Assembly: GCF_001457615.1 (NCBI RefSeq)
Contig: NZ_LN831024.1
Coordinates: 2,610,001-2,642,000, forward strand
Length of the DNA stretch: 32,000 nucleotides
Reading direction: 5' to 3'
Source of the DNA: Pseudomonas aeruginosa
GTDB taxonomy: Bacteria; Pseudomonadota; Gammaproteobacteria; Pseudomonadales; Pseudomonadaceae
Positions 8,912-20,305 of this stretch are shown one piece after another (position 1 is the first letter of the stretch; the number at the start of each line of letters is the position of its first letter). A model generated the notes under the pieces. The model was not told the origin of the DNA. It did no database searches and worked only from the letters and a program-made list of their open reading frames with translations. Position numbers and translations under genes: made by a program.

Positions 8912-10651
8912 ATGAGACTGACTCAAGGATTGTTCCGGTTCCCGCTGGCCGGGCTGCTGTGCCTGAGTACGGCCGCCTTCGCGGAGAGCCAGCTTAGCGT
9001 GCGCGTCACCCCCGCCAATGCCGCCCTGAAGGCCAATATCGAGGCCTATGTGGGTAGCCTCGGCGAGCGGGACGAGGCGGCGTTGCAACGTTTCCGCCGC
9101 AATGCCGAGGCGCAGGCGGAAAAGGCGGCCCAGGCGCTCGGCTACTTCCAGGCGCAGATCGACAGCGAGGTGAAGGACGGCAAGCCGCCGAAGCTCACGC
9201 TCAAGGTAGTGCCCGGCGAGCCCGTGCGCCTGCGCCAGGTGAATATCCAGGTGCTCGGCGAGGCCGCCAGCCTGGAGAGCTTCCGCTTGCCGTCGGGCAA
9301 GCAGCTGAAACCGGGCGCGAAGCTGAACCAGGGTGTCTACGAGGATGCCAAGCGGCTGATCCAGAACCAGGCCTCGCGCTACGGCTTCTTCCAGGGCCGC
9401 TTCAGCACCCAGCGCCTGAGCATCGATCCGCGCGCCGGCATCGCCGACATCGACCTGGTCTACGACAGCGGCCAGCGCTACACCTTCGGCAAGGTGAGCT
9501 TCGACGGCGACTCGATCATCGAGGAAGAACTGTTGCGCCGCATGGTGCCGTTCAAGGCCGGCCAACCCTATGACTCCGAACTGATCGCCGAACTCAACCA
9601 GAACCTGCAATCCAGCGGTTACTTCGAGGGCGTGCGGGTCGACGCCGCGCCGACCCAGGCGCAGGCCGACGGCGCGCGCCAGGCGATCCCGGTAGCGGTC
9701 CGGCTGGAGGCGCGCAAGCCCCGGACCATGGGCGTCGGCCTCGGTTTCTCGACCGACGTCGGGGCGCGCGCGAGGTTCAACTGGACCCGCCATTGGGTGA
9801 ATGCCGAAGGACATAGCCTGGGATTCGAGTCGGAAATCTCCGCACCACGGCAGAACGTCGGCGCCTGGTACGAGATTCCCCTCGATCCGCCGCTCACCGA
9901 CAAGCTGCGCTTCACCAGCGGCTACCAGTTCGAAGACCTGGTCGACACCGAGAGCAAGCTGCTGACCCTTGGCGGCGAATGGCACAGCAAGCGGCCCGAT
10001 GGCTGGCAGCGGGTGGTTTCGCTGAACTGGATGCGCGAGGAGTACAAGCTGGGCGACGACTCCGGGCTGAGCAGCTTCCTGATGCCGGGGATCGGCTACT
10101 CGCTGCTGGAGACCGACAACAAGGTCGACCCCAGCCATGGCTACCGCCTGCAGTTCAACGTCAAGGGGGCGAAGGAAGGCCTGCTGGCCGACGCCGACGT
10201 CCTCCATGTCGACGCCATGGCCAAGGGCCTGACCAGCTTCGCCGGCGGCCATCGCCTGCTCGGCCGCCTGCAGGTAGGCGGAATCGCCACCAACGACTAC
10301 AAGTCGATCCCGCCCTCGCTGCGCTTCTTCGCTGGCGGCGACCAGAGCGTGCGTGGCTACGACTACCGGACGCTGTCGCCGGAGAATTCCGATGGCGACA
10401 AGATCGGCGGCCGCTACATGATCGCCGGCAGCGTCGAGTATCAATATCCGCTGGCCGAGCGCTGGCGCCTGGCGACCTTCGTCGACCAGGGCAACGCCTT
10501 CAACTCGCTGGACTTCCCGTCGATCAAGACCGGGGTCGGCTTCGGCGTGCGCTGGGTCTCGCCGGTCGGCCCGTTGCGCCTCGACCTGGCCCATGCGCTC
10601 GACGACGACGGCGGTTTCCGCCTGCACTTCTCCATGGGGCCAGAACTGTGA
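8912..10651 (+). CDS. tamA: translocation and assembly module outer-membrane subunit TamA (Omp85 family)
   Basis: 579-aa ORF with a signal peptide ([12 protein letters not shown]). It has POTRA-like repeats ([10 protein letters not shown]...) and a C-terminal beta-barrel with [12 protein letters not shown] and a terminal aromatic-rich strand. Its stop overlaps the tamB start (GTGA). Confidence 0.9.
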
Positions 10652-13600
10652 AGGCGCTGAAGATCACCTTGCTGGCCATAGTCGGGCTGCTCCTCGCGCT
10701 GCTCCTGGGACTCGCTGCGCTGCTCGGCACCCAGACCGGCAGCGCCTGGCTGCTCGGCCGCGTGCCGGGCCTGCAGGTCAGCGGCTTCGAGGGTCGCCTC
10801 GGTGGCGCCTGGCAGGCACAGCGGCTGTCCTGGGCGCAGGACGGTACGCAACTGGTCGTCGAGCGGCCTGAACTGCGCTGGTCGCCGGCCTGCCTGGCGG
10901 GGCTGCGCCTGTGCCTGCAGCGGGTGGCCGCCGAACGGGTCGCGCTGGACCTGCCGCCGAGCGGCGACAGCGCCGACAGCGGGCCGATCAGCCTGCCGAC
11001 GCTGAAACTGCCGCTGAGCATCGAACTCGGCGAAGTGGCGGTCGGCAGCTTCCTGCTCGACGGCAACCAGCAGGTCGCCGAACTCAAGCTGGCGGCCCAT
11101 TGGCTGGCCGACGGCCTGCACATCGACTCGCTGACGGCGCGGGGCTTCGGCCTGGACCTGGCGCTCCAGGGGCGCTTGCAGCCGAGCGGCGACTGGCCCT
11201 TGCAGGCCGAAGCCACGCTCGGCCTGCCCGCTCCCGAAGACAAGCCGTGGAAGCTGGCCGTCCAGGTCGGCGGTGAACTGCAGAAGGCGCTGACCCTGAA
11301 AGGCCGCAGCAGCGGTTACCTGGACGGCAGCCTGGAAGGACAGTTGCAGGCGCTGGCGGAAAACCTGCCGGCACGATTGCTGATCCGCGCCGACGGTTTC
11401 AAGGGGGCGGCCGGACTACCGGACACCTTGACCCTGAATGCCATCCAGCTCGATGCCAGCGGCGATCTCAAGAGCGGTTACCTGATCCGCGGCGGCGCCA
11501 GCCTGCCGGGCGAGGGCGGGGCGGTGGCGTTGAGCCTGGACGGGCGGGTCGACGCCCAGGGCGCGGATATCCGCCAACTGCGCCTGGACGCTGGCGGCGA
11601 GCAGCGCCTGGAGCTGGTCGGACGCCTGGACTGGCGCGAAAGCCTGGCCGCCGACGCGACCCTGGACTGGAAGGATTTCCCCTGGCTGCGCCTGTATCCG
11701 CTGGCGGAGCCGCCGCCGGTGACGCTGAAGACCTTCAAGGCGGAAGTGCATTACCAGGACCAGCGCTACCTGGGCAATTTCAGCGCGGCGGCGAGCGGTC
11801 CGGCGGGCGACTTCACGCTGGCCAGCCCGGTGTCCGGCGACCTCGTCCAGCTCAACCTGCCGTCGCTGCAGCTCCGCGCCGGGCAAGGCCAGGCCGAGGG
11901 GAGGGTGACGTTGCGTTTCGACAATGGCGTGGCTTGGGATACCGCCCTGCAGCTCAGCGAACTGAACCCGGCTTACTGGGTCGCCGAGCTGCCGGGTTCA
12001 CTGGCCGGTCCCTTGCGTAGCCAGGGAAGTGTTCGCGACGAGCGGCTGGCGTTGGGCGTGGATCTCGACGTCAAGGGCCGCCTGCGCGGCCAGCCGGCGC
12101 TATTCCAGGCGCGCGCCGAAGGCGAGGGGCAGCGCTGGACGCTGGGCAACCTCGACCTGCGCCTGGGGGATAACAAGGTTCAGGGCAGCGGGGCGCTCGA
12201 CCAGCGCCTGCAAGGCCGCCTGGACATCGCCCTGAACCGTCTCGGCCAGCTTTGGCCGCAACTCTTCGGTCGCCTCGACGGACGCCTCGACCTGGCTGGC
12301 AGCCTCGCGGCGCCGCAAGGCAGGCTGAACCTCAAGGGACAGCAGATCGCCTACGCCGAGCAGCGCATCGCCGGCCTCGACCTGCAGGCGAACCTCGATG
12401 CCCGGCAGAACGGCACCCTGGCGCTGGTCGCTTCCGGCCTGCGCAGCGGCGAAACCGACCTCGGCCTGTTCAAGGCCAATGCCCGCGGCGACCAACGCCG
12501 CCAGCAACTGGAACTGGACCTGCAAGGTGCCTTGCTCAAGCTCGGCCTGGCCTTCGACGGGCAACTGGAGCGCGGCAACTGGCGCGGTCGCCTGGCGCGC
12601 GGCGAGTTGAGCAGTGGCGGCCAGGACTGGAAACTACAGCAGCCGGCGCGCCTGGAGCGGTTGGCCGACGGCAGGGTCAATTTCGGCGCACATTGCTGGG
12701 TATCCGGCGCCGCCAGCCTCTGCGGCGGCGAGCAGCGCCTGCTGCCCGAGCCGCGGCTGCGCTACACCCTGCGCGACTTCCCGCTGGACAGCCTGAAGCA
12801 ATGGTTCCCCGAGGACTTCGCCTGGCAGGGCAAGCTGAACGGCGACCTGCAACTGGACGTTCCGGCCCGCGGCCCGAGCGGCGTGGTCAGCCTGGACGCC
12901 GGCAGCGGTACGCTGCGCCTGCGCGACCAGGGCCAGTGGGTCGACGTCGGCTACGACAGCCTGCGCCTGGAGAGCCGGTTGGCGCCCAACCGCGTCGATA
13001 CCTCCCTCGACTTCCGCGGACCGAAGCTCGGCGAGTTGCGGGTGCAGGCGCAGATCGACCCGCGCCCGGCGAGCAAGCCGCTGAGCGGCGAGTTCAGCCT
13101 GGCCGGCCTCGACCTGTCGCTGGCGCGCCCGTTCGTGCCGATGGTGGAGAAACTGCAAGGCAGGCTGAACGGCAGCGGCCGGCTGTCCGGCGGCCTGCTG
13201 GCGCCGCGGGTCGACGGACGGGTGACGCTGAGCGACGGCAACATTGGCGGCGGCGAGCTGCCGACCAGCTTCGAGAACCTTTCCCTCGACGCTCGCATCG
13301 CTGGCGAAAGCCTGGAACTCGGCGGCGGCTGGCGCAGCGGCAGGTACGGCCAGGGCAGCCTGTCCGGCAACCTGAGCTGGGGCGAGGCGCTGAACGTCGC
13401 CCTGAACATCCGTGGCAACCGCCTGCCGGTGGTGGTCGATCCCTATGCGCAACTGGAGGTGGAACCGGACCTGAAGATCGGCATGGCCGGCCAGGAGCTG
13501 GCGATCTCCGGCAAGGTCCTGGTGCCGCGTGGCGACATCACCATCCGCCAGTTGCCGCCATCCACGGTCAAGGTCTCCGACGACGCGGTGATCGTCGGCT

Positions 13601-14313
13601 CCGAGCAGCCCGAGCAGCAGCCGCTGAAGATGAAGATGGACATCGATGTCGAGGTCGGCCAGGACAAGCTGGCGTTTTCCGGCTTCGGCCTCAGCGCCGA
13701 ACTGGCCGGCCACCTGCACATCGGCGACAACCTGGATACCCGCGGCGAGCTGAACCTGAACAAGGGCCGCTATCGTGCCTACGGCCAGCGCCTGACGATC
13801 CGTAGGGCGCGGCTGTTCTTCGCCGGACCGATCGACCAGCCGTACCTGGATATCGAGGCGATCCGCCGGGTCGACGACGTGGTCGCCGGCCTGCGCCTGA
13901 CCGGCAGCGCCGAGCAGCCGACCAGCGCGGTATTCTCCGAACCGGCGATGAGCCAGGAGCAGGCGTTGTCCTACCTGGTGCTGGGGCGGCCGATGAGCAC
14001 CGGCGAAGACAGCAACATGCTCGGCGAGGCGGCCCTGGCCCTGGGCCTGGCCGGTAGCGCACCGCTCACCGGGGAAATCGCCAAGCAGCTCGGCATCCAG
14101 GACTTCCAGCTGGACACCGAGGGCACCGGCAACAGCACCAGCGTGGTCGCCAGCGGGAATATCACCGACAAGCTCAGCCTGCGCTATGGTGTTGGAGTGT
14201 TCGAACCGGCAAATACCATCGCCTTGCGCTACCAGTTGACCAAACGCCTCTATCTCGAAGCGGCGAGCGGCCTGGCCAGTTCGCTGGACCTGTTCTTCAA
14301 GCGCGATTTCTGA
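10648..14313 (+). CDS. tamB: translocation and assembly module inner-membrane subunit TamB (AsmA-like, DUF490 C-terminus)
   Basis: GTG 10648 overlaps the tamA TGA (10649-10651). The N-terminal anchor is [28 protein letters not shown] long beta-rich repetitive body follows, then a DUF490-like end (GRYRAYGQRLTIRRARLFFAGPIDQPYLDIEA...LFFKRDF). This gives 1221 aa. Confidence 0.9.
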   Translation: MKALKITLLAIVGLLLALLLGLAALLGTQTGSAWLLGRVPGLQVSGFEGRLGGAWQAQRLSWAQDGTQLVVERPELRWSPACLAGLRLCLQRVAAERVALDLPPSGDSADSGPISLPTLKLPLSIELGEVAVGSFLLDGNQQVAELKLAAHWLADGLHIDSLTARGFGLDLALQGRLQPSGDWPLQAEATLGLPAPEDKPWKLAVQVGGELQKALTLKGRSSGYLDGSLEGQLQALAENLPARLLIRADGFKGAAGLPDTLTLNAIQLDASGDLKSGYLIRGGASLPGEGGAVALSLDGRVDAQGADIRQLRLDAGGEQRLELVGRLDWRESLAADATLDWKDFPWLRLYPLAEPPPVTLKTFKAEVHYQDQRYLGNFSAAASGPAGDFTLASPVSGDLVQLNLPSLQLRAGQGQAEGRVTLRFDNGVAWDTALQLSELNPAYWVAELPGSLAGPLRSQGSVRDERLALGVDLDVKGRLRGQPALFQARAEGEGQRWTLGNLDLRLGDNKVQGSGALDQRLQGRLDIALNRLGQLWPQLFGRLDGRLDLAGSLAAPQGRLNLKGQQIAYAEQRIAGLDLQANLDARQNGTLALVASGLRSGETDLGLFKANARGDQRRQQLELDLQGALLKLGLAFDGQLERGNWRGRLARGELSSGGQDWKLQQPARLERLADGRVNFGAHCWVSGAASLCGGEQRLLPEPRLRYTLRDFPLDSLKQWFPEDFAWQGKLNGDLQLDVPARGPSGVVSLDAGSGTLRLRDQGQWVDVGYDSLRLESRLAPNRVDTSLDFRGPKLGELRVQAQIDPRPASKPLSGEFSLAGLDLSLARPFVPMVEKLQGRLNGSGRLSGGLLAPRVDGRVTLSDGNIGGGELPTSFENLSLDARIAGESLELGGGWRSGRYGQGSLSGNLSWGEALNVALNIRGNRLPVVVDPYAQLEVEPDLKIGMAGQELAISGKVLVPRGDITIRQLPPSTVKVSDDAVIVGSEQPEQQPLKMKMDIDVEVGQDKLAFSGFGLSAELAGHLHIGDNLDTRGELNLNKGRYRAYGQRLTIRRARLFFAGPIDQPYLDIEAIRRVDDVVAGLRLTGSAEQPTSAVFSEPAMSQEQALSYLVLGRPMSTGEDSNMLGEAALALGLAGSAPLTGEIAKQLGIQDFQLDTEGTGNSTSVVASGNITDKLSLRYGVGVFEPANTIALRYQLTKRLYLEAASGLASSLDLFFKRDF

Positions 14314-14381
14314 CGGATGCGCTGATACGGACCATGCGTAACGCATAAAAGTGTGTCACTTTTAGCGGCGCATCGACGTCG

Positions 14382-14387
14382 TAGAAT
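14382..14387 (+). promoter_or_regulatory. possible -10 element (TAGAAT) for the lipid operon
   Basis: TAGAAT lies 61 nt upstream of ATG 14448. I found no convincing -35 (CTTTTA/TTTTAG at 16-17 bp spacing). Confidence 0.25.
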
Positions 14388-14447
14388 GGAGCGGGCGCCG
14401 ACCGCCAGGTCGGTGCCCGAAGCAACTCGGCACAAGGACTGGCTGAC

Positions 14448-15083
14448 ATGATTTCCGTCTATCAACTCAAACCGCGCTTTCAGAATCTTCTTCGTCCCGG
14501 CGTGCAGCGCCTCTACCGGCGCGGCATCACTGCCAACCAGGTGACCCTGGCGGCCTGCCTGCTGTCGCTGCTGGTCGGCGCGCTGGTCGCCGGTTTCGCC
14601 AGCCATCTCTGGCTGTTCGCCCTCGTTCCGCTGTGGATGTTCCTGCGCATGGCGCTGAACGCGGTGGACGGCATGCTCGCCCGCGAGTTCGGCCAGAAAT
14701 CCGACCTGGGCGCCTACCTCAACGAACTCACCGACGTGATCGCCGACAGCGGCCTGTACCTGCCGTTCGCCCTGTTGCCGGGAGTCAACCCGCTGTGGGT
14801 GGTGCTGGTGGTGCTGCTGGCGGTGATCAGCGAATATGCCGGCGCGCTGGGCACCATGGTCGGCGCTTCGCGCCGCTACGACGGCCCGATGGGCAAAAGC
14901 GACCGGGCGCTGTGTTTCGGCGTGATCGGCGCCGGGGTGGCCAGCGGCCTTTTGCCGCTGGCCTGGATCGACTGGCTGATGTTGCTGATCGCGGCCCTGC
15001 TGTTGCTGACCATCGGCAACCGCGTGCGCCAGGGCCTGGCCGAGCTGGCCGCGAGTCGACGGGGCAGCGACGGCCAGGCCTGA
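14448..15083 (+). CDS. CDP-alcohol phosphatidyltransferase family protein (E. coli YnbA-like), non-canonical motif
   Basis: 211-aa polytopic membrane ORF. The motif is NAVDGMLAREFGQKSDLGAYLNELTDVIAD, compared with the canonical DxxDGxxAR-x8-GxxxDxxxD. AAGGA lies 9 nt upstream of the ATG. Confidence 0.85.
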   Translation: MISVYQLKPRFQNLLRPGVQRLYRRGITANQVTLAACLLSLLVGALVAGFASHLWLFALVPLWMFLRMALNAVDGMLAREFGQKSDLGAYLNELTDVIADSGLYLPFALLPGVNPLWVVLVVLLAVISEYAGALGTMVGASRRYDGPMGKSDRALCFGVIGAGVASGLLPLAWIDWLMLLIAALLLLTIGNRVRQGLAELAASRRGSDGQA

Positions 15084-15172
15084 GAGGGAACGGGCGAACG
15101 CCATGGAGGTGGGCGCCCGCAGGAAGCAACCCCGCCGGGATCCCGGCCGGGGCAACGACATAGGGACATCAC

Positions 15173-16933
15173 ATGCGCGACGTACAGGAACTGCGTTTCA
15201 CCACCCACGACGGGGTAGAGCTCTTCTACCGCCACTGGCCGGCCAGCCGCCCGGCGCCGGACGGCACGCGCCAGGCGGTGCTGCTGTTCCACCGCGGCCA
15301 TGAGCACTCCGGGCGGATCGCCCACCTGGTCGACGAACTCGACCTGCCGGAACACGACTTCTTCGCCTGGGACGCCCGTGGCCACGGCCTCTCGCCAGGC
15401 GCCCGCGGCGACAGCCCGAGCTTTGCCACCAGCGTGCGCGACGTACAGACCTTCGTCGACCATATCCAGGCCGTCCACGGTATCGCCGAAGAGCGGATGG
15501 CGGTGGTGGCGCAGAGCGTCGGCGCGGTGCTGGTTTCCACCTGGGCCCACGACTACGCGCCGAAGGTGCGCGCACTGGTGCTGGCTTCGCCGGCGTTCCA
15601 GGTCAAGCTCTATGTGCCGTTCGCCCGCAGCGGGCTGAAACTGATGCGCCTGTGGCGCGGCAATTTCTTCGTCAACAGCTATGTCAAGGCACGCTTCCTC
15701 AGTCACGACCCGGAGCGGATCGCCTCCTACGACAGCGACCCGCTGATCGCCAAGGCGATCTCGGTGAACGTCCTGCTCGGCCTCTACGAAGCTGCCGAGC
15801 GGGTGGTAGCGGACGCACAGGCGATCCAGATTCCCACCCAACTGCTGATTTCCGGGGCCGACTTCGTCGTCCATCGTGCGCCGCAGGAGCGCTTCTTCGA
15901 GCGTCTCGGCAGCCTGCGCAAGGAAAAGCACATCCTGCCCGGCTTCTTCCACGACACCCTTGGCGAGCGCGATCGTCACCTGGCCGTCGGCCGTGCCCGG
16001 CGCTTCCTCCTCGAGGCATTCGCCACGGCACCTGAACGACCGAGCCTGCTCGATGCCGACCGCCTGGGCCATACCTGCGCCGAGGCCGAGGCGCTGGCCG
16101 CGCCGTTGCCGAAGAACTCGCCGCGCGATCTCTACTGGCGCGCCACCCGTGCCGGGCTGCGCCTGGGCAGCCTGTGGTCGGACGGGGTCAAGCTGGGCTT
16201 CGACACCGGCTTCGATTCCGGCAGCACCCTCGACTATGTCTACCGCAACCAGCCCAGCGGCAGCGGCCCGCTGGGTCGCCTGATCGACCGCAACTACCTG
16301 GACTCCATCGGCTGGCGCGGCATCCGCCAGCGCAAGCTGCACGCCGAGGAGCTGCTGCGCCTGGCCATGCAGCGGTTGCGCGAGGAGCAGCGCGAGGTGC
16401 GCATCGTCGACATCGCCGCCGGCCACGGCCGCTACATCCTCGAAGCCCTGCAAGGCGTCGAGCCGCTGCCGGAAAGCATCCTCCTGCGCGACTACAGCGA
16501 GATCAACGTGCGTGACGGCAGCGCCCTGATCGAAAGCAAGGGCCTCGCCGGCATCGCCCGCTTCGTCAAGGGCGATGCCTTCGATCGCGCCGACCTGGCG
16601 GCGCTGCAACCGAAGCCGAGCCTCGGGGTGGTTTCCGGGCTCTACGAGCTGTTCGCCGACAACCGCATGGTCGGCGACTCCCTCGCCGGCCTCGGCGAGG
16701 CGCTGGAGGAGGGCGGCTACCTGGTCTACACCGGACAGCCCTGGCACCCGCAGCTGGAACTGATCGCCCGCGCGCTGACCAGCCACCGCCAGGGCCAGGC
16801 CTGGGTGATGCGGCGCCGGACCCAGGCGGAAATGGACCAGCTGGTGGCCGCCGCCGGCTTCCGCAAGATCACCCAGCGGGTCGACCAGTGGGGCATCTTC
16901 AGCGTATCGCTGGCGCAGAAGGTCGCCCGCTGA
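15173..16933 (+). CDS. fusion protein: N-terminal alpha/beta hydrolase (lysophospholipase/monoacylglycerol-lipase type) plus C-terminal class I SAM-dependent methyltransferase (YnbC-like)
   Basis: 586 aa. The hydrolase part has LLFHRGHEHSGR (oxyanion-hole type), a nucleophile elbow AQSVG, and GFFHDTL (His). The methyltransferase part has VRIVDIAAGHGRY (motif I), LLRDYS (post-I acidic residue) and VVSGLYELF. Confidence 0.8.
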   Translation: MRDVQELRFTTHDGVELFYRHWPASRPAPDGTRQAVLLFHRGHEHSGRIAHLVDELDLPEHDFFAWDARGHGLSPGARGDSPSFATSVRDVQTFVDHIQAVHGIAEERMAVVAQSVGAVLVSTWAHDYAPKVRALVLASPAFQVKLYVPFARSGLKLMRLWRGNFFVNSYVKARFLSHDPERIASYDSDPLIAKAISVNVLLGLYEAAERVVADAQAIQIPTQLLISGADFVVHRAPQERFFERLGSLRKEKHILPGFFHDTLGERDRHLAVGRARRFLLEAFATAPERPSLLDADRLGHTCAEAEALAAPLPKNSPRDLYWRATRAGLRLGSLWSDGVKLGFDTGFDSGSTLDYVYRNQPSGSGPLGRLIDRNYLDSIGWRGIRQRKLHAEELLRLAMQRLREEQREVRIVDIAAGHGRYILEALQGVEPLPESILLRDYSEINVRDGSALIESKGLAGIARFVKGDAFDRADLAALQPKPSLGVVSGLYELFADNRMVGDSLAGLGEALEEGGYLVYTGQPWHPQLELIARALTSHRQGQAWVMRRRTQAEMDQLVAAAGFRKITQRVDQWGIFSVSLAQKVAR

Positions 16934-18282
16934 TGGCGCCGCGCGAGCCGGGGGTACTGAAGCGGGCGGTGCTCTGGCTGCTGTTCCTCGGCCCGTTCTT
17001 CTTCGCCAGCTATGGCCTGGCCAACTGGTTGACCAGCCAGCGCGGCGACGTCGGCAGCCTGGTCTTCGACTGGGAACGCGGGATGCCGCTGTGGCCCTGG
17101 ACCATCCTGCCGTACTGGTCGATCGACCTGCTCTACGGCCTGTCGCTGTTGTTGCCGCGGGACAAGCGCGAGCTGGACACCCACTGCCTGCGCCTGCTCA
17201 GCACCCAGGTGCTGTCGGTGACCTGCTTCCTGCTGTTCCCCCTGCGCTTCACCTTCGAACGGCCGGAACTGGGCGGCGTGTTCGGCTGGCTGTTCGACGT
17301 GCTGATGGGGTTCGACAAACCGTACAACCAGGCACCGTCGCTGCACATCGCCCTGCTGGTAGTGCTCTGGGTCTGCTACGCGCGCTACGCCAGCGGCGCC
17401 TGGCGCTGGCTGCTGCATGGCTGGTTCGCGCTGATCGGGCTGTCGGTGCTGACCACCTGGCAGCACCATTTCATCGACGTGCCCACCGGCGCGCTGGCCG
17501 GTTGGCTGTGCGTCTGGCTGTGGCCGCAGGCGCAGCCCGCGCCGTTCGCCCGCGCCAGTCTGAGCCGCGACCGGCAACGGCGGCGGCTGGCCGCTCGCTA
17601 CGGCCTCGGCGCGCTGGCCTGCGCCGCCGTCGCCTTTGCCGTCGGCGGTGCGGCGTTGTGGCTGTGCTGGCCGGCGCTGGCGCTGGCGCTGGTGGCGCTG
17701 AACTACCTGCTGTTCGGCGCCGCCGGCTTCCAGAAGGGCAGCACTGGCCGCCTGAGCGCCGCCGCGCGCTGGCTGCTGGCGCCATATCTGCTTGCCGCGC
17801 GGATCAACGCCTGGCTCTGGACCCGTCGCCGGCCGCAGCCGGACGAGGTGCTGCCGGGCCTCTGGTTGGGGCGCCTGCCGTCGTCCGCGGAACTGGCCGA
17901 CGGCCGCTTCCGCGCATTGCTCGACGCTACCGCCGAACTTTCCTGCGAGCCGCAGGGGCTGGCCTATCGCAGCCTGCCGTTGCTCGACCTGGTCGCGCCG
18001 GACGTCGAGGACTGCCGGCGCGCCGCGGTGCTGATCGACGAACTGCTGGCGCAAGGGCCGCTGCTGGTGGCCTGTGCCCTGGGCTATTCGCGCAGCGCCA
18101 CGCTGGTCGCCGCCTGGCTGCTGCTCAGCGGCCGCGCGGCGGACGTCGAGTCGGCCGTGGCCGTGTTACGTCGGGCGCGACCGCAAGTGCTGCTGGGCGA
18201 GGCCCAGCGGCGGACCCTCGCGGCGCTGAGCGGGAGCGTGCCGGAGCCATCGGCGGAACTGGGCGAGGTGCGCCATGCCTGA
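16933..18282 (+). CDS. fusion membrane protein: PAP2-superfamily domain plus C-terminal dual-specificity (CX5R) phosphatase domain (YnbD-like)
   Basis: ATG 16933 overlaps the upstream TGA (TGATG). The PAP2-type motifs are PSLH (17335-17346) and QHHFIDVPTG (17461-17490), within a polytopic N-terminal half. The P-loop VACALGYSRS has Cys at 18073-18075 and Arg at 18091-18093. Confidence 0.8.
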   Translation: MAPREPGVLKRAVLWLLFLGPFFFASYGLANWLTSQRGDVGSLVFDWERGMPLWPWTILPYWSIDLLYGLSLLLPRDKRELDTHCLRLLSTQVLSVTCFLLFPLRFTFERPELGGVFGWLFDVLMGFDKPYNQAPSLHIALLVVLWVCYARYASGAWRWLLHGWFALIGLSVLTTWQHHFIDVPTGALAGWLCVWLWPQAQPAPFARASLSRDRQRRRLAARYGLGALACAAVAFAVGGAALWLCWPALALALVALNYLLFGAAGFQKGSTGRLSAAARWLLAPYLLAARINAWLWTRRRPQPDEVLPGLWLGRLPSSAELADGRFRALLDATAELSCEPQGLAYRSLPLLDLVAPDVEDCRRAAVLIDELLAQGPLLVACALGYSRSATLVAAWLLLSGRAADVESAVAVLRRARPQVLLGEAQRRTLAALSGSVPEPSAELGEVRHA

Positions 18283-18727
18283 GCAAACCCTGGCCCTGGT
18301 GGCGGCCCTGCTGCGCCGTGGCCGCGAGCTTGACCGGCTGTCCGCCGCACTGACCCTGCTGGCCATCGGGCTGGGCCTGTACCAGGCCGTGCAGGGCATC
18401 GGCTGGCGCTATTTCGCTGCGGCGATGCTGGCGATCGCCATGCTCGGCCTGTGGCAGAAGTACTGGGCGCTGCGAGTGGCCCTGGACGCCGAACTGTTCG
18501 AACGTTTCAGCCGCGTCGGCGACAGGCTGGAAGCGCAGACCCAAGACCTGGACCGGGCCCTGGCCGATCTCGGCCTGGCCCGAGCGGACGCCGCAGGGCG
18601 CACCTGGAACCAGCGCAGCCGCGGCGCCCTGCGCCTGCTACGCTGGCAGGCGCTGGCCTGTGGCGCCCAGTTCCTGCTGGCCTTGTCGTGCCTGTTGTCG
18701 ATCCCTCTATTCAACGCTCAAACCTGA
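18275..18727 (+). CDS. small membrane protein, unknown function (150 aa)
   Basis: ATG 18275 overlaps the upstream gene by 8 nt. It has three hydrophobic segments (LTLLAIGLGLY, FAAAMLAIAMLGLW, AQFLLALSCLLSIPLF) around a charged helical stretch. Codon bias is consistent with coding. Confidence 0.65.
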   Translation: MPEQTLALVAALLRRGRELDRLSAALTLLAIGLGLYQAVQGIGWRYFAAAMLAIAMLGLWQKYWALRVALDAELFERFSRVGDRLEAQTQDLDRALADLGLARADAAGRTWNQRSRGALRLLRWQALACGAQFLLALSCLLSIPLFNAQT

Positions 18728-18738
18728 AGAGTCTTCCC

Positions 18739-19368
18739 ATGCTCGAATCAGTCGTCGCCTATGGCATCATCGCCGGCGCCCGCGCCATCACCGGCTTGCG
18801 CAGCCTCTGGCTGGGCACCACGCCGATCCCCAAGCAACGCATCTATTACGCCAACCACAGCAGCCATGGCGACTTCGTCCTGCTCTGGGCCTCGCTGCCG
18901 CCGGAGGTGCGGCGGCGTACCCGGCCGGTGGCGGGCGCCGACTACTGGAACAAGGCCGGCCTGCGCAGCTACGTGATCAACAAGGTGTTCAACGGCGTGC
19001 TGGTCGACCGCCAGCGCAGCGAGGCCAATGCCAATCCGCTCGAACCCCTCGACCGCGCCCTGGACGGCGGCGATTCGCTGATCATCTTCCCCGAGGGCAC
19101 CCGCAACCTGGACGACGAGGTCAAGCTGTTGCCATTCAAGAGCGGTATCTACCACCTGTCCCTGGCCCACCCGGACGTCGAGCTGGTGCCGGTCTGGCTG
19201 GCCAACCTCAACCGGGTCATGCCCAAGGGCCGCATGCTGCCGTTGCCGCTGCTCTGCACCCTGAGCTTCGGCAAGCCGCTGGTCGCCACGGCGGAAGAAG
19301 GCAAGGAGGCGTTCCTCGAACGAGCGCGCATGGCCCTGCTGGACCTGGCGCCGGAAGAGGAGGCCTGA
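18739..19368 (+). CDS. PlsC-type (lyso)phospholipid acyltransferase
   Basis: ORF 18451..19368, trimmed to ATG 18739 (MLESVVAYGI...), 11 nt after the previous stop. It carries the H(X)4D block NHSSHGD and the FPEGTR block. Confidence 0.85.
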   Translation: MLESVVAYGIIAGARAITGLRSLWLGTTPIPKQRIYYANHSSHGDFVLLWASLPPEVRRRTRPVAGADYWNKAGLRSYVINKVFNGVLVDRQRSEANANPLEPLDRALDGGDSLIIFPEGTRNLDDEVKLLPFKSGIYHLSLAHPDVELVPVWLANLNRVMPKGRMLPLPLLCTLSFGKPLVATAEEGKEAFLERARMALLDLAPEEEA

Positions 19369-19369
19369 G

Positions 19370-20305
19370 ATGAACGAACAGACCTGGATGCTCTTCGGCG
19401 GGATCGGCGCGCTGCTGCTGCTCGCCTCGCTGGTCGGCTTCGTCCTCAAGTGGCGCGCCGGTCCCGGCCCGAACGCGGTGATCGACAACCTGAACGCACG
19501 GATCAACGCCTGGTGGGCGATGGTCCTGGTGATCGGTTTCGCCTTCTGGCTTGGCCAGGCGGCGGTGATCCTGCTGTTCTATGGCGTGTCGTTCTACGCC
19601 CTGCGCGAGTTCATCACCCTCACCCCGACCCGGCGCAGCGACTACCCGGCGCTGGTGGCGGCGTTCTACTTCGTGCTGCCGATGCAGTACCTGCTGATCT
19701 ACATCGACTGGTACAGCATGTTCTCGATCTTCATCCCGGTGTACGTGTTCCTGCTGTTGCCGATCCTCGCCTCGCTGGGCGGCGACACCAAGCACTTCCT
19801 CGAACGCGCCTCGAAAGTGCAGTGGGGCCTGATGCTGGCGGTGTTCTGTATCTCCTTCGTGCCGGCGCTGCTGACCCTCGACATCCCCGGCTTCGAGGGG
19901 CGCAACCTGCTGCTGATCGCCTACCTGGTGATCGTCGTGCAGCTCTCCGACGTGATGCAGTACATCTGCGGCAAGCTGTTCGGCAAGCGCAAGATCGCTC
20001 CCAACCTGTCGCCGTCGAAGACCGTCGAAGGCTTCGTCGGCGGCATCGCCCTGGCCACCGCCATCGGCGCCTCGCTGTGGTGGATCACCCCGTTCAACCT
20101 CTGGCAGGCGGCGCTGATCGCGCTGCTGATCAACCTGCTGGGCTTCTTCGGCGGCCTGGTGATGTCGGCGATCAAGCGCGACCGTGGGGTCAAGGACTGG
20201 GGGCACATGATCGAAGGCCACGGTGGCATGCTCGACCGCCTGGACTCGGTGTGCTTCGCCGCGCCGATCTTCTTCCACGTGGTGCGCTACTGGTGGACGC
20301 CCTGA
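19370..20305 (+). CDS. phosphatidate cytidylyltransferase (CDP-diglyceride synthase) paralogue, YnbB-like
   Basis: 311-aa polytopic ORF starting 1 nt after the acyltransferase stop. It carries the CdsA signature SAIKRDRGVKDWGHMIEGHGGMLDRLDS and SPSKTVEG. Confidence 0.9.
   Translation: MNEQTWMLFGGIGALLLLASLVGFVLKWRAGPGPNAVIDNLNARINAWWAMVLVIGFAFWLGQAAVILLFYGVSFYALREFITLTPTRRSDYPALVAAFYFVLPMQYLLIYIDWYSMFSIFIPVYVFLLLPILASLGGDTKHFLERASKVQWGLMLAVFCISFVPALLTLDIPGFEGRNLLLIAYLVIVVQLSDVMQYICGKLFGKRKIAPNLSPSKTVEGFVGGIALATAIGASLWWITPFNLWQAALIALLINLLGFFGGLVMSAIKRDRGVKDWGHMIEGHGGMLDRLDSVCFAAPIFFHVVRYWWTP

Follow-up and report, generated by a model that had tools for sequence, protein, structure and literature searches.

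A YnbD-family fusion of PAP2-type and dual-specificity phosphatase domains encoded in the arc1 operon of Pseudomonas aeruginosa: a candidate bifunctional lipid enzyme of the inner membrane

Phosphatases of the PAP2 superfamily clamp the terminal phosphate of their substrates by means of the Lys and Arg of the C1 motif (KX6RP) and the Arg of the C3 motif (SRX5HX3D) (PMC7413402), whereas the sphingomyelin synthases (SMS), SMSr and Aur1 act on phosphodiester substrates with a His-His-Asp triad alone (H301/H344/D348 in SMSr and H255/H294/D298 in Aur1) (PMC12122681). An "E-H/D-H-D pentad" has also been reported for SMSr (PMC12292559). In Escherichia coli, YnbD has been described as a fourth putative membrane PAP2 protein (PMC7413402). 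In Pseudomonas aeruginosa, the arc1A-F operon (PA2541-PA2536) comprises six genes, five of them lipid related, is induced by Gac/Rsm and is required to survive type VI attack by Burkholderia thailandensis (PMC8926400), and resistance to lipase effectors from Vibrio cholerae and Acinetobacter baylyi is incomplete without it (PMC12663445). The genes tested in these papers were arc1A and arc1F (PMC8926400, PMC12663445), while PA2539 appears in a transcriptome study as a conserved hypothetical gene that groups with type VI secretion system (T6SS) genes (PMC7685553). Here we describe an open reading frame (ORF) located at positions 16933-18282 of the + strand of a 32,000-nucleotide (nt) stretch of P. 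aeruginosa DNA (contig NZ_LN831024.1, positions 2,610,001 to 2,642,000; hereafter the window, whose numbering is used throughout). The ORF encodes a protein of 449 amino acids (aa) with eight transmembrane helices and a C-terminal dual-specificity phosphatase (DSP) domain. Sequence comparison identifies it as an orthologue of YnbD from E. coli, and we tentatively read its product as a bifunctional lipid enzyme with two sites predicted on opposite faces of the inner membrane.

The product of the ORF aligned over its full length with E. coli YnbD (b1411), with 40% identity (E value of 4e-89), and a close match was labelled "putative protein YnbD". The neighbouring genes were in agreement with this assignment, their products showing 50%, 56% and 39% identity to YnbA, YnbC and YnbB of E. 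coli, respectively. Since the ORF is the third of six co-oriented genes, we infer from gene order and from the descriptions in the papers that it is arc1C (PA2539), the third gene of arc1A-F. The chosen ATG yields 449 aa, the same length as that of an annotated P. aeruginosa protein (P0002 in our searches; 99% identity, 100% coverage). The stop codon of the upstream gene, arc1B, shares one base with this ATG (TGATG), and the start of arc1D reaches 8 nt into the end of arc1C; given these overlaps, the three genes look translationally coupled.

The fusion of PAP2 and DSP domains is an already annotated family and not a new one: the 99% identical P. aeruginosa protein bears the NCBI name for such a fusion. 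When 1.84 billion cluster representatives (clusters at the 50% identity level) were searched exhaustively with HMMER, 4178 matches were obtained at E values of ≤1e-3 and 504 clusters at ≤1e-30, and nearly all of the best 150 matches were full length. Thus the occurrence of two chemistries in one protein, considered unusual in a prediction made earlier from the DNA alone (the original prediction), is the trait of a named family that includes E. coli YnbD. Separate PAP2 and DSP genes were sought among the short representatives, and the two that were checked proved to be fragments ended by contig ends, which leaves split versions of the fusion without support.

Conservation was counted in an alignment of 106 family sequences showing 33 to 70% identity to the query, to which all the counts out of 106 below refer. 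E48, P60, Y61, F99, P103, P135, H138, H178, D182, P284 and G384 were invariant, and at least 95% of the sequences retained D128, N132, S136, S171, Q177, H179, D352, C381 and R387 (C381 in 105, and R387 and D352 in 104 each). By these counts both catalytic sets, the putative PAP2 set and that of the DSP domain, are under selection. The original prediction had made conservation of the PAP2 motifs in orthologues a point on which it could fail; with H138, H178 and D182 present in 106 of 106 sequences, it withstood this check.

The PAP2-type six-helix membrane domain occupies aa 1-200 (16933-17532, + strand) and is supported by conservation, Pfam matches within the family, a model of the N-terminal domain, Foldseek comparison and the count of positive charges inside. 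In the arc1C product itself, PAP2_3 (E value of 2.8e-4) and PAP2 (5.6e-4) were both matched under the gathering threshold, with scores of 21.2 and 20.1 bits where the PAP2 models (PF01569 / PF14378) require about 27. At E values of ≤0.01, PAP2 was matched by 78 of the 106 family members (best, 3.4e-8) and PAP2_3 by 74 (best, 2.4e-11), and PAP2_C matches also occur within the family.

The PAP2 motifs are present in part. The C2 motif (PSGH) appears as P135-S136-L137-H138 (aa 135-138, 17335-17346, + strand), with P135 and H138 in all 106 sequences, S136 in 104 and Leu in the place of Gly. The His and Asp of the C3 motif are found with HHFID (aa 178-182, 17464-17478, + strand), S171 being retained in 105 sequences and H178 and D182 in all of them; the profile of the N-terminal domain aligned this region to LPP1 (glSvlltyqHhliDvltG versus GLSRVSDYKHHWSDVLTG). 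The C1 Lys is missing, the invariant P103 standing seven residues before R110-P111, and so is the C3 Arg, the residue after S171 being Val in 69 sequences, Thr in 29 and never Arg. The putative catalytic set, predicted to lie on the periplasmic side, would thus consist of E48 (17074-17076), D128, N132, P135-S-L-H138 and H178-H-F-I-D182. The invariant E48 and the near-invariant D128 are reminiscent, in the sequence, of the SMSr pentad.

When the model of aa 1-299 (predicted local distance difference test [pLDDT], 96.6) was compared with the PDB by Foldseek, the first two ranks were taken by human SMSr (E value of 3.4e-3) and inositol phosphorylceramide (IPC) synthase (1.3e-2), the third by Aquifex LpxE (3e-2) and the fourth by yeast Aur1-Kei1 (4.8e-2), followed by G6PC1, PgpB, LPP1 and YodM. 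The probability was 1.00 for SMSr, IPC synthase, LpxE and Aur1, which share the PAP2 six-helix core fold. The model therefore supports membership of the membrane domain in the PAP2 superfamily, closest to the head-group-transferase branch, as had been proposed in the original prediction; head-group transferases hold ranks 1, 2 and 4, and the Lys and Arg of the clamp are missing. The spacing of H138, H178 and D182 (H...H-x3-D, with about 40 residues between the His residues) matches that of the SMSr and Aur1 triads. Because of this spacing and of the loss of the C1 Lys and the C3 Arg, a phosphodiester substrate, used for head-group transfer or for hydrolysis of the phospholipase C type, appears somewhat more probable than a phosphomonoester.

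The DSP domain (aa 304-433, 17842-18231, + strand) was matched by Pfam DSPc (PF00782) with an E value of 1.1e-8 and 35.4 bits, above the gathering threshold of 33.5. Its P-loop, VACALGYSRS (aa 379-388, 18067-18096, + strand; CX5R core at 18073-18093), contains the CX5R(S/T) loop as C381-ALGYS-R387-S388, in which G384 is invariant, and the general-acid D352 (17986-17988) lies about 30 residues upstream. On these sequence features the C-terminal domain is a complete DSP. With the motifs at the places given for them, DSPc above gathering and fold matches for both parts, a PAP2-type half and a CX5R DSP half do coexist in a single protein, as first proposed. The sole NCBIfam match was PRK12361, whose N-terminal positions 8-232 (about 225) fell on aa 221-432; since this match spans both the last transmembrane hairpin and the DSP domain, the two behave as one module.

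With the whole model, Foldseek returned DSPs only (template modelling score of about 0.8 when normalised to the target, root mean square deviation of 2.1 to 2.5 Å, about 143 columns), DUSP5, Tk-PTP, DUSP7 and VHZ among them. The best solved relatives by sequence (phmmer against the PDB) were DUSP23, VHR and Tk-PTP. PTPMT1, the enzyme from which the analogy with a lipid phosphatase had originally been drawn, came at Foldseek rank 32 with a phmmer E value of 0.54, and the analogy does not hold in that specific form. The residue preceding the catalytic Cys was His in 53 of the 106 sequences, Cys in 35 and Ala in 6. Among the top matches, which are dominated by Pseudomonas, Cys (VCCALGYSRS) was found in 113 and Ala in 5, the latter being P. 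aeruginosa-named and closest sequences with 79 to 99% identity. The vicinal Cys pair of most other Pseudomonas proteins might permit redox control.

The full-length AlphaFold2 model, obtained with the family alignment without its E. coli row, reached a pLDDT of 95.4 and a predicted template modelling score of 0.92. It shows eight long helices (residues 8-35, 55-73, 78-101, 137-150, 155-174, 182-196, 214-237 and 239-266), then an interfacial helix at residues 283-297, while residues 304-433 form an alpha/beta domain. The hairpin formed by transmembrane helices 7 and 8, together with the interfacial helix (aa 214-297, 17572-17823, + strand; delimited by DSSP of the models), is predicted to hold the DSP domain at the cytoplasmic side of the membrane. 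The predicted inner loops contain 10 Lys or Arg in 42 residues (family mean, 8.6), and the loops bearing E48, D128-H138 and H178-D182 contain 5 in 68 residues (family mean, 4.2). Because these counts follow the positive-inside rule, both termini of the modelled protein are predicted to be cytoplasmic, with the PAP2 site in the periplasm and the DSP site in the cytoplasm. The topology prediction that had been called for at the outset thus places the two sites on opposite membrane faces, an arrangement that, as a prediction, is new here.

The genomic context is one of lipid metabolism. The six co-oriented genes extend over 14448-20305 (+ strand), and five of them are lipid related. The first, arc1A (ynbA homologue, 14448-15083), encodes a cytidine diphosphate (CDP)-alcohol phosphatidyltransferase of 211 aa (Pfam CDP-OH_P_transf, 6.6e-8). 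Its nearest NCBIfam models were those of archaetidylinositol phosphate (AIP) synthase (1.6e-20) and phosphatidylinositol phosphate (PIP) synthase (7.5e-14), with scores that fell far short of the cut-off in either case; Arc1A/YnbA was much more distant from PgsA and could be aligned to mycobacterial PgsA1. Its signature reads N-x2-DG-x2-AR-x8-G-x3-N-x3-D-x3-D (aa 71-100, 14658-14747), and, relative to the canonical DxxDGxxAR...GxxxDxxxD, Asn replaces Asp at the first and third of the four Asp positions in 83 of 83 Arc1A/YnbA homologues from the loci fetched, E. coli YnbA included. The second gene, arc1B (ynbC homologue, 15173-16933), encodes a monoacylglycerol lipase-like alpha/beta hydrolase fused to an S-adenosylmethionine-dependent Methyltransf_20 domain (Pfam Hydrolase_4, 1.3e-69; Methyltransf_20, 1.6e-157). 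The N-terminal half of Arc1B matched monoacylglycerol lipases of the PDB (best, 6qe2, 9.5e-19), and a PDB sequence search with its Methyltransf_20 half gave zero solved relatives at E values of ≤0.01. Downstream of arc1C lie arc1D (18275-18727), arc1E (18748-19368), which encodes a PlsC-type acyltransferase (Pfam Acyltransferase, 1.4e-16), and arc1F (ynbB homologue, 19370-20305), which encodes a CdsA paralogue of the CDP-diacylglycerol synthase type (Pfam CTP_transf_1, 7.5e-76).

The order of the six genes is kept in about 80 genomes, belonging to Pseudomonas, Xanthomonas, Stenotrophomonas (two loci without an arc1D match), Zoogloea and a betaproteobacterial metagenome-assembled genome. At 34 to 36% identity, relatives of arc1C still lie between the hydrolase/methyltransferase gene and the gene for the CdsA paralogue or the acyltransferase, and a recognisable CDP-alcohol transferase gene adjoins distant relatives in three of the five contigs checked. 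The core of the operon, that is, the CdsA paralogue, the PIP synthase-like transferase, the hydrolase/methyltransferase and the PAP2/DSP protein, is conserved down to 36% identity, which is also new here. In addition, two proteins, of 666 aa (P0166) and 641 aa (P0225), are natural triple fusions in which a PlsC-type acyltransferase follows the PAP2 and DSP domains at the C-terminus, the gene at 10001-11926 of locus L084 being of this type; such fusions link arc1C and arc1E functionally. Genes for a 4HBT thioesterase and an EamA transporter come after the L084 cluster, and two class II aldolase-family genes come before it. In a distant metagenomic cluster (12940-16323 of locus L085), a gene for a protein with MFS_1, Acyltransferase and AMP-binding domains follows that of the CdsA paralogue. 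This Aas/LplT type stands for uptake and re-acylation of lysophospholipids, and a P. aeruginosa gene of the same type, aas (PA3267), was also found by T6SS defence screens.

The phosphorylated lipid formed by synthases of the PIP and AIP type calls for a phosphatase of its own, and the only phosphatase domains of the operon are in arc1C, so that its DSP domain is a candidate for this role. A precedent exists in Bacteroides thetaiotaomicron, in whose cluster BT_1523 is a PIP synthase and BT_1525 a PIP phosphatase, while the AUR1-like BT_1522 transfers phospho-inositol to dihydroceramide (PMC9246714). On this basis, the reading that we prefer, to which we would give somewhat less than an even chance, is that of a bifunctional inner-membrane lipid enzyme with two sites on opposite membrane faces, acting in a phosphatidyl-alcohol pathway. 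The CdsA paralogue Arc1F would supply CDP-diacylglycerol, from which Arc1A would make a phosphatidyl-alcohol-phosphate in the cytoplasmic leaflet; the membrane-tethered cytoplasmic DSP domain, through C381, R387 and D352, would then strip off the terminal phosphate, as PgpA/B/C, PTPMT1 and BT_1525 do in their own pathways. These three steps are drawn from homology and context. The fourth, more speculative, would take place after the lipid reaches the outer leaflet, where the H138/H178/D182 site would attack the phosphodiester, not a phosphomonoester, through a phospho-histidine intermediate, with an acceptor or water receiving the phospho-head group and diacylglycerol being released; this is the mode of action of SMS, SMSr, Aur1 and BT_1522. 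As accessory enzymes, Arc1B (monoacylglycerol lipase/methyltransferase) and Arc1E (acyltransferase) may recycle or modify the lipid products. That the DSP domain acts on the product of the neighbouring transferase, as was suggested originally, is favoured by the conserved operon, by the likeness of Arc1A to PIP and AIP synthases and by the predicted cytoplasmic position of the domain; the part of that suggestion naming phosphatidylglycerophosphate (PGP) as the substrate fared worse (see below). Overall, the original reading is partly supported.

A more far-reaching form of this pathway is unlikely in our view. According to it, the arc1C product would be a ceramide-independent bacterial counterpart of the sphingomyelin and IPC synthases, transferring in the periplasm the head group of the operon's own phosphatidyl-alcohol to a non-sphingolipid acceptor of the envelope; the product, a hitherto undescribed lipid or envelope modification, would be made only under Gac/Rsm "danger" signalling and would make the envelope more resistant to type VI lipases. 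The unusual head group would in that case be set by the Asn-substituted transferase together with the methyltransferase.

Several observations weigh against the bifunctional pathway enzyme that we prefer. Plasmid-borne E. coli ynbD failed to rescue the pgpA/pgpB/pgpC strain BWPGPTs and likewise failed in BWTsbacA and BWTetra-TsbacA, deficient in undecaprenyl pyrophosphate (C55-PP) phosphatase (PMC7413402 Table 2). The complementation of an E. coli pgpABC mutant that the original prediction had put forward had therefore already been published for the orthologue, with a negative outcome. Since YnbD does not replace PgpA/B/C, PGP is unlikely as a general substrate: either the DSP domain lacks a general PGP phosphatase activity or its function depends on partner proteins. 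By sequence and fold this domain is generic and not specifically PTPMT1-like, and the residue before its catalytic Cys in this protein is Ala380 (18070-18072), not the canonical His of HCX5R. In the membrane domain, R110-P111 is a retained remnant of the C1 motif (position 110 is Arg in 81 sequences and Lys in 12), the Foldseek E values are modest (3e-3 to 5e-2) and LpxE, a true phosphatase, ranks third. The topology is a prediction from the positive-inside rule and the helices of the model only. With Asn in place of two of the four Asp residues of the signature, Arc1A may have a non-standard chemistry, and no gene for head-group synthesis, such as one for an inositol-phosphate synthase, was found in the window flanks or in the distant neighbourhoods. 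Finally, no biochemical activity is on record for any member of the YnbD/Arc1C family, and the PA numbers used here come from gene order and the descriptions in the papers.

Of the competing explanations, the one that survives best, which we regard as rather unlikely, is a role in repair or detoxification. Here the periplasmic PAP2 site would hydrolyse the damage left by phospholipase effectors at the outer leaflet, namely phosphatidic acid, lysophosphatidic acid or, in a phospholipase C-like manner, lysophospholipids; the mono- or diacylglycerol would flip inward and be degraded by the lipase domain of Arc1B, or be re-acylated by Arc1E and rebuilt via the CdsA paralogue, Arc1A and the DSP domain into a lipid of the phosphatidylglycerol (PG) type. 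The need of arc1A for full resistance to lipase effectors (PMC12663445) fits this explanation, as do the monoacylglycerol lipase-like hydrolase of Arc1B, the Aas/LplT-type lysophospholipid repair gene adjoining the distant cluster and the presence of LpxE, PgpB and LPP1 among the fold matches. Ting et al. also point out homology to four enzymes of PG synthesis (PMC8926400), and SMSr itself is reported to be a phospholipase C specific for phosphatidylethanolamine (PMC12594915). However, the loss of the C1 Lys and the C3 Arg disfavours phosphomonoesters such as phosphatidic and lysophosphatidic acid, YnbD does not replace PgpA/B/C, and the methyltransferase domain would be left without a role. 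Moreover, the arc1 defect is not relieved by the loss of any single B. thailandensis effector, Tle1 and Tle3 included (PMC8926400).

An improbable alternative is that the operon makes or recycles a sugar-pyrophosphate-diacylglycerol of the MPIase type, with the PAP2 domain serving as a diacylglycerol-pyrophosphate or glycolipid pyrophosphatase and the DSP domain trimming a sugar or lipid phosphate. Overproduction of YnbB raises MPIase, and YnbB cannot replace CdsA in bulk lipid synthesis (PMC6362211); the recycling of lipid pyrophosphates is common among PAP2 enzymes (PMC7413402), and the Asn-bearing signature of Arc1A/YnbA could mean a non-standard acceptor. Nevertheless, deletion of ynbB hardly alters MPIase, and the synthesis of compound I was assigned by the authors to CdsA/YnbB themselves (PMC6362211). 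The cluster is also widespread in Pseudomonas, Xanthomonas and betaproteobacteria with no glycosyltransferase nearby in the neighbourhoods examined, and the missing Lys and Arg disfavour a substrate with a terminal phosphate.

Equally improbable is that the DSP domain is not a lipid phosphatase but a regulatory protein phosphatase, or a redox switch, for the PAP2 domain or for other envelope proteins. Its closest relatives are protein-directed DUSPs (DUSP23, VHR and DUSP1/5/7) and the archaeal Tk-PTP, and the position preceding the catalytic Cys varies, most Pseudomonas proteins having another Cys there, which would suit redox control. Against this, the fusion of the domain to a lipid enzyme is a permanent one and the domain is held at the surface of the membrane, all the conserved neighbours are lipid enzymes with no conserved kinase nearby, and the fusions extend to a PlsC-type acyltransferase; in addition, a transferase of the PIP/AIP synthase type needs a phosphatase, and the operon has no other candidate. 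A fusion left with a single chemistry, the other domain being an inactive relic, is highly improbable: it could be argued from the PAP2 match of the arc1C product under Pfam gathering, from the loss of the HCX5R His in P. aeruginosa and from the inactivity of E. coli YnbD in two complementation assays (PMC7413402), but it is contradicted by the invariant or near-invariant catalytic residues of both domains in 106 sequences down to 33% identity.

Regarding the remaining features of the locus, arc1D encodes a predicted membrane protein of 150 aa for which searches of Pfam and NCBIfam gave no match. It is present at the same position in nearly all the Pseudomonas loci, the one contig lacking it ending there, and its position is also kept in Xanthomonas, Zoogloea and the betaproteobacterial genome; no tblastn match was obtained in the two Stenotrophomonas loci, and the gene is absent from E. 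coli ynbABCD.

Upstream of arc1A, the leader is predicted to contain a stable, GC-rich hairpin of 12 bp (14392-14419) followed by a small hairpin (14427-14446) whose loop shows AGGAC, the Shine-Dalgarno sequence (fold of 14375-14455, -35.5 kcal/mol; z of -3.4 versus shuffles). The element ACAAGGAC (14432-14439, + strand) carries a GGA motif over the Shine-Dalgarno sequence of arc1A, in the predicted loop of the small hairpin. The predicted fold has the shape typical of an RsmA/CsrA binding site. PA2541 figures among the listed targets of RsmA, with just one site, located at the Shine-Dalgarno sequence (PMC4066749), with which the position of the ACAAGGAC hairpin at the first gene agrees. When the operon was scanned for promoter and terminator consensus sequences, no match exceeded the level expected from shuffled sequence.

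The genes immediately upstream of the operon, which have the same orientation, encode TamA (Omp85, POTRA_TamA_1; 8912-10651) and a TamB-like giant protein (about 10648-14313). Among 80 related loci, adjacency to tamB was seen in Pseudomonas delhiensis (L006) only; TamA/TamB were considered as part of the system and rejected, since the adjacency looks lineage specific.

This annotated fusion occurs in two model organisms, and in P. aeruginosa arc1 belongs to a set of three operons for which protection from type VI secretion attack has been demonstrated. The residues singled out are C381, R387 and D352 in the DSP domain and H138, H178, D182 and E48 in the PAP2 domain. If head-group transfer is true, a new inducible lipid or modification of the envelope would take part in interbacterial defence. 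The Bacteroides cluster of PIP synthase, PIP phosphatase and AUR1-like transferase is a precedent that indicates which lipid intermediates to expect.

In comparison with the systems described, the locus in the window is the same as P. aeruginosa arc1A-F (PA2541-PA2536), with nothing that differs. E. coli YnbD shares the PSLH, QHHFID and CALGxSRS motifs with the arc1C product, the canonical His before the Cys (VHCALGLSRS) being Ala in P. aeruginosa, and the ynbABCD operon differs from arc1 in lacking the small membrane protein and the acyltransferase and in its gene order (A-F-B-C).

The phosphatases PgpB, YbjG, LpxE, LPP1-3 and YodM have the same fold as the arc1C membrane domain, an active site on the outer side, and the conserved His of C2 and His/Asp pair of C3. 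The arc1C product differs from them by the absence of the C1 Lys and the C3 Arg and by the Leu that replaces the Gly of PSGH, and E. coli YnbD is no substitute in vivo for PgpB, YbjG or BacA (PMC7413402).

With SMS1/2, SMSr, Aur1 and BT_1522 the arc1C product shares the PAP2 fold, the H...H-x3-D arrangement, the absence of the Lys/Arg clamp and, as predicted, the position of the triad near the outer leaflet and the cytosolic termini (PMC12122681). As in PgpB, SMS and Aur1, its PAP2 site is predicted on the outer side. Identity to the SMS and IPC synthases was 13 to 16% in the Foldseek alignments, and none of these enzymes has a DSP domain. To our knowledge, ceramide synthesis is not known in P. 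aeruginosa or in E. coli, so that donor and acceptor must differ from those of the SMS and IPC synthases.

For the cytoplasmic step, PTPMT1 and BT_1525 play the part proposed here for the DSP domain: each takes the terminal phosphate off a lipid made by a CDP-alcohol phosphatidyltransferase. PTPMT1 is likewise a DSP by fold but shows no particular closeness to the arc1C domain in sequence or structure, whereas BT_1525 is of the PgpA type, with a fold unrelated to that of the DSPs. By analogy with Bacteroides, YnbD/Arc1C would join functions of the BT_1525 and BT_1522 types in one chain.

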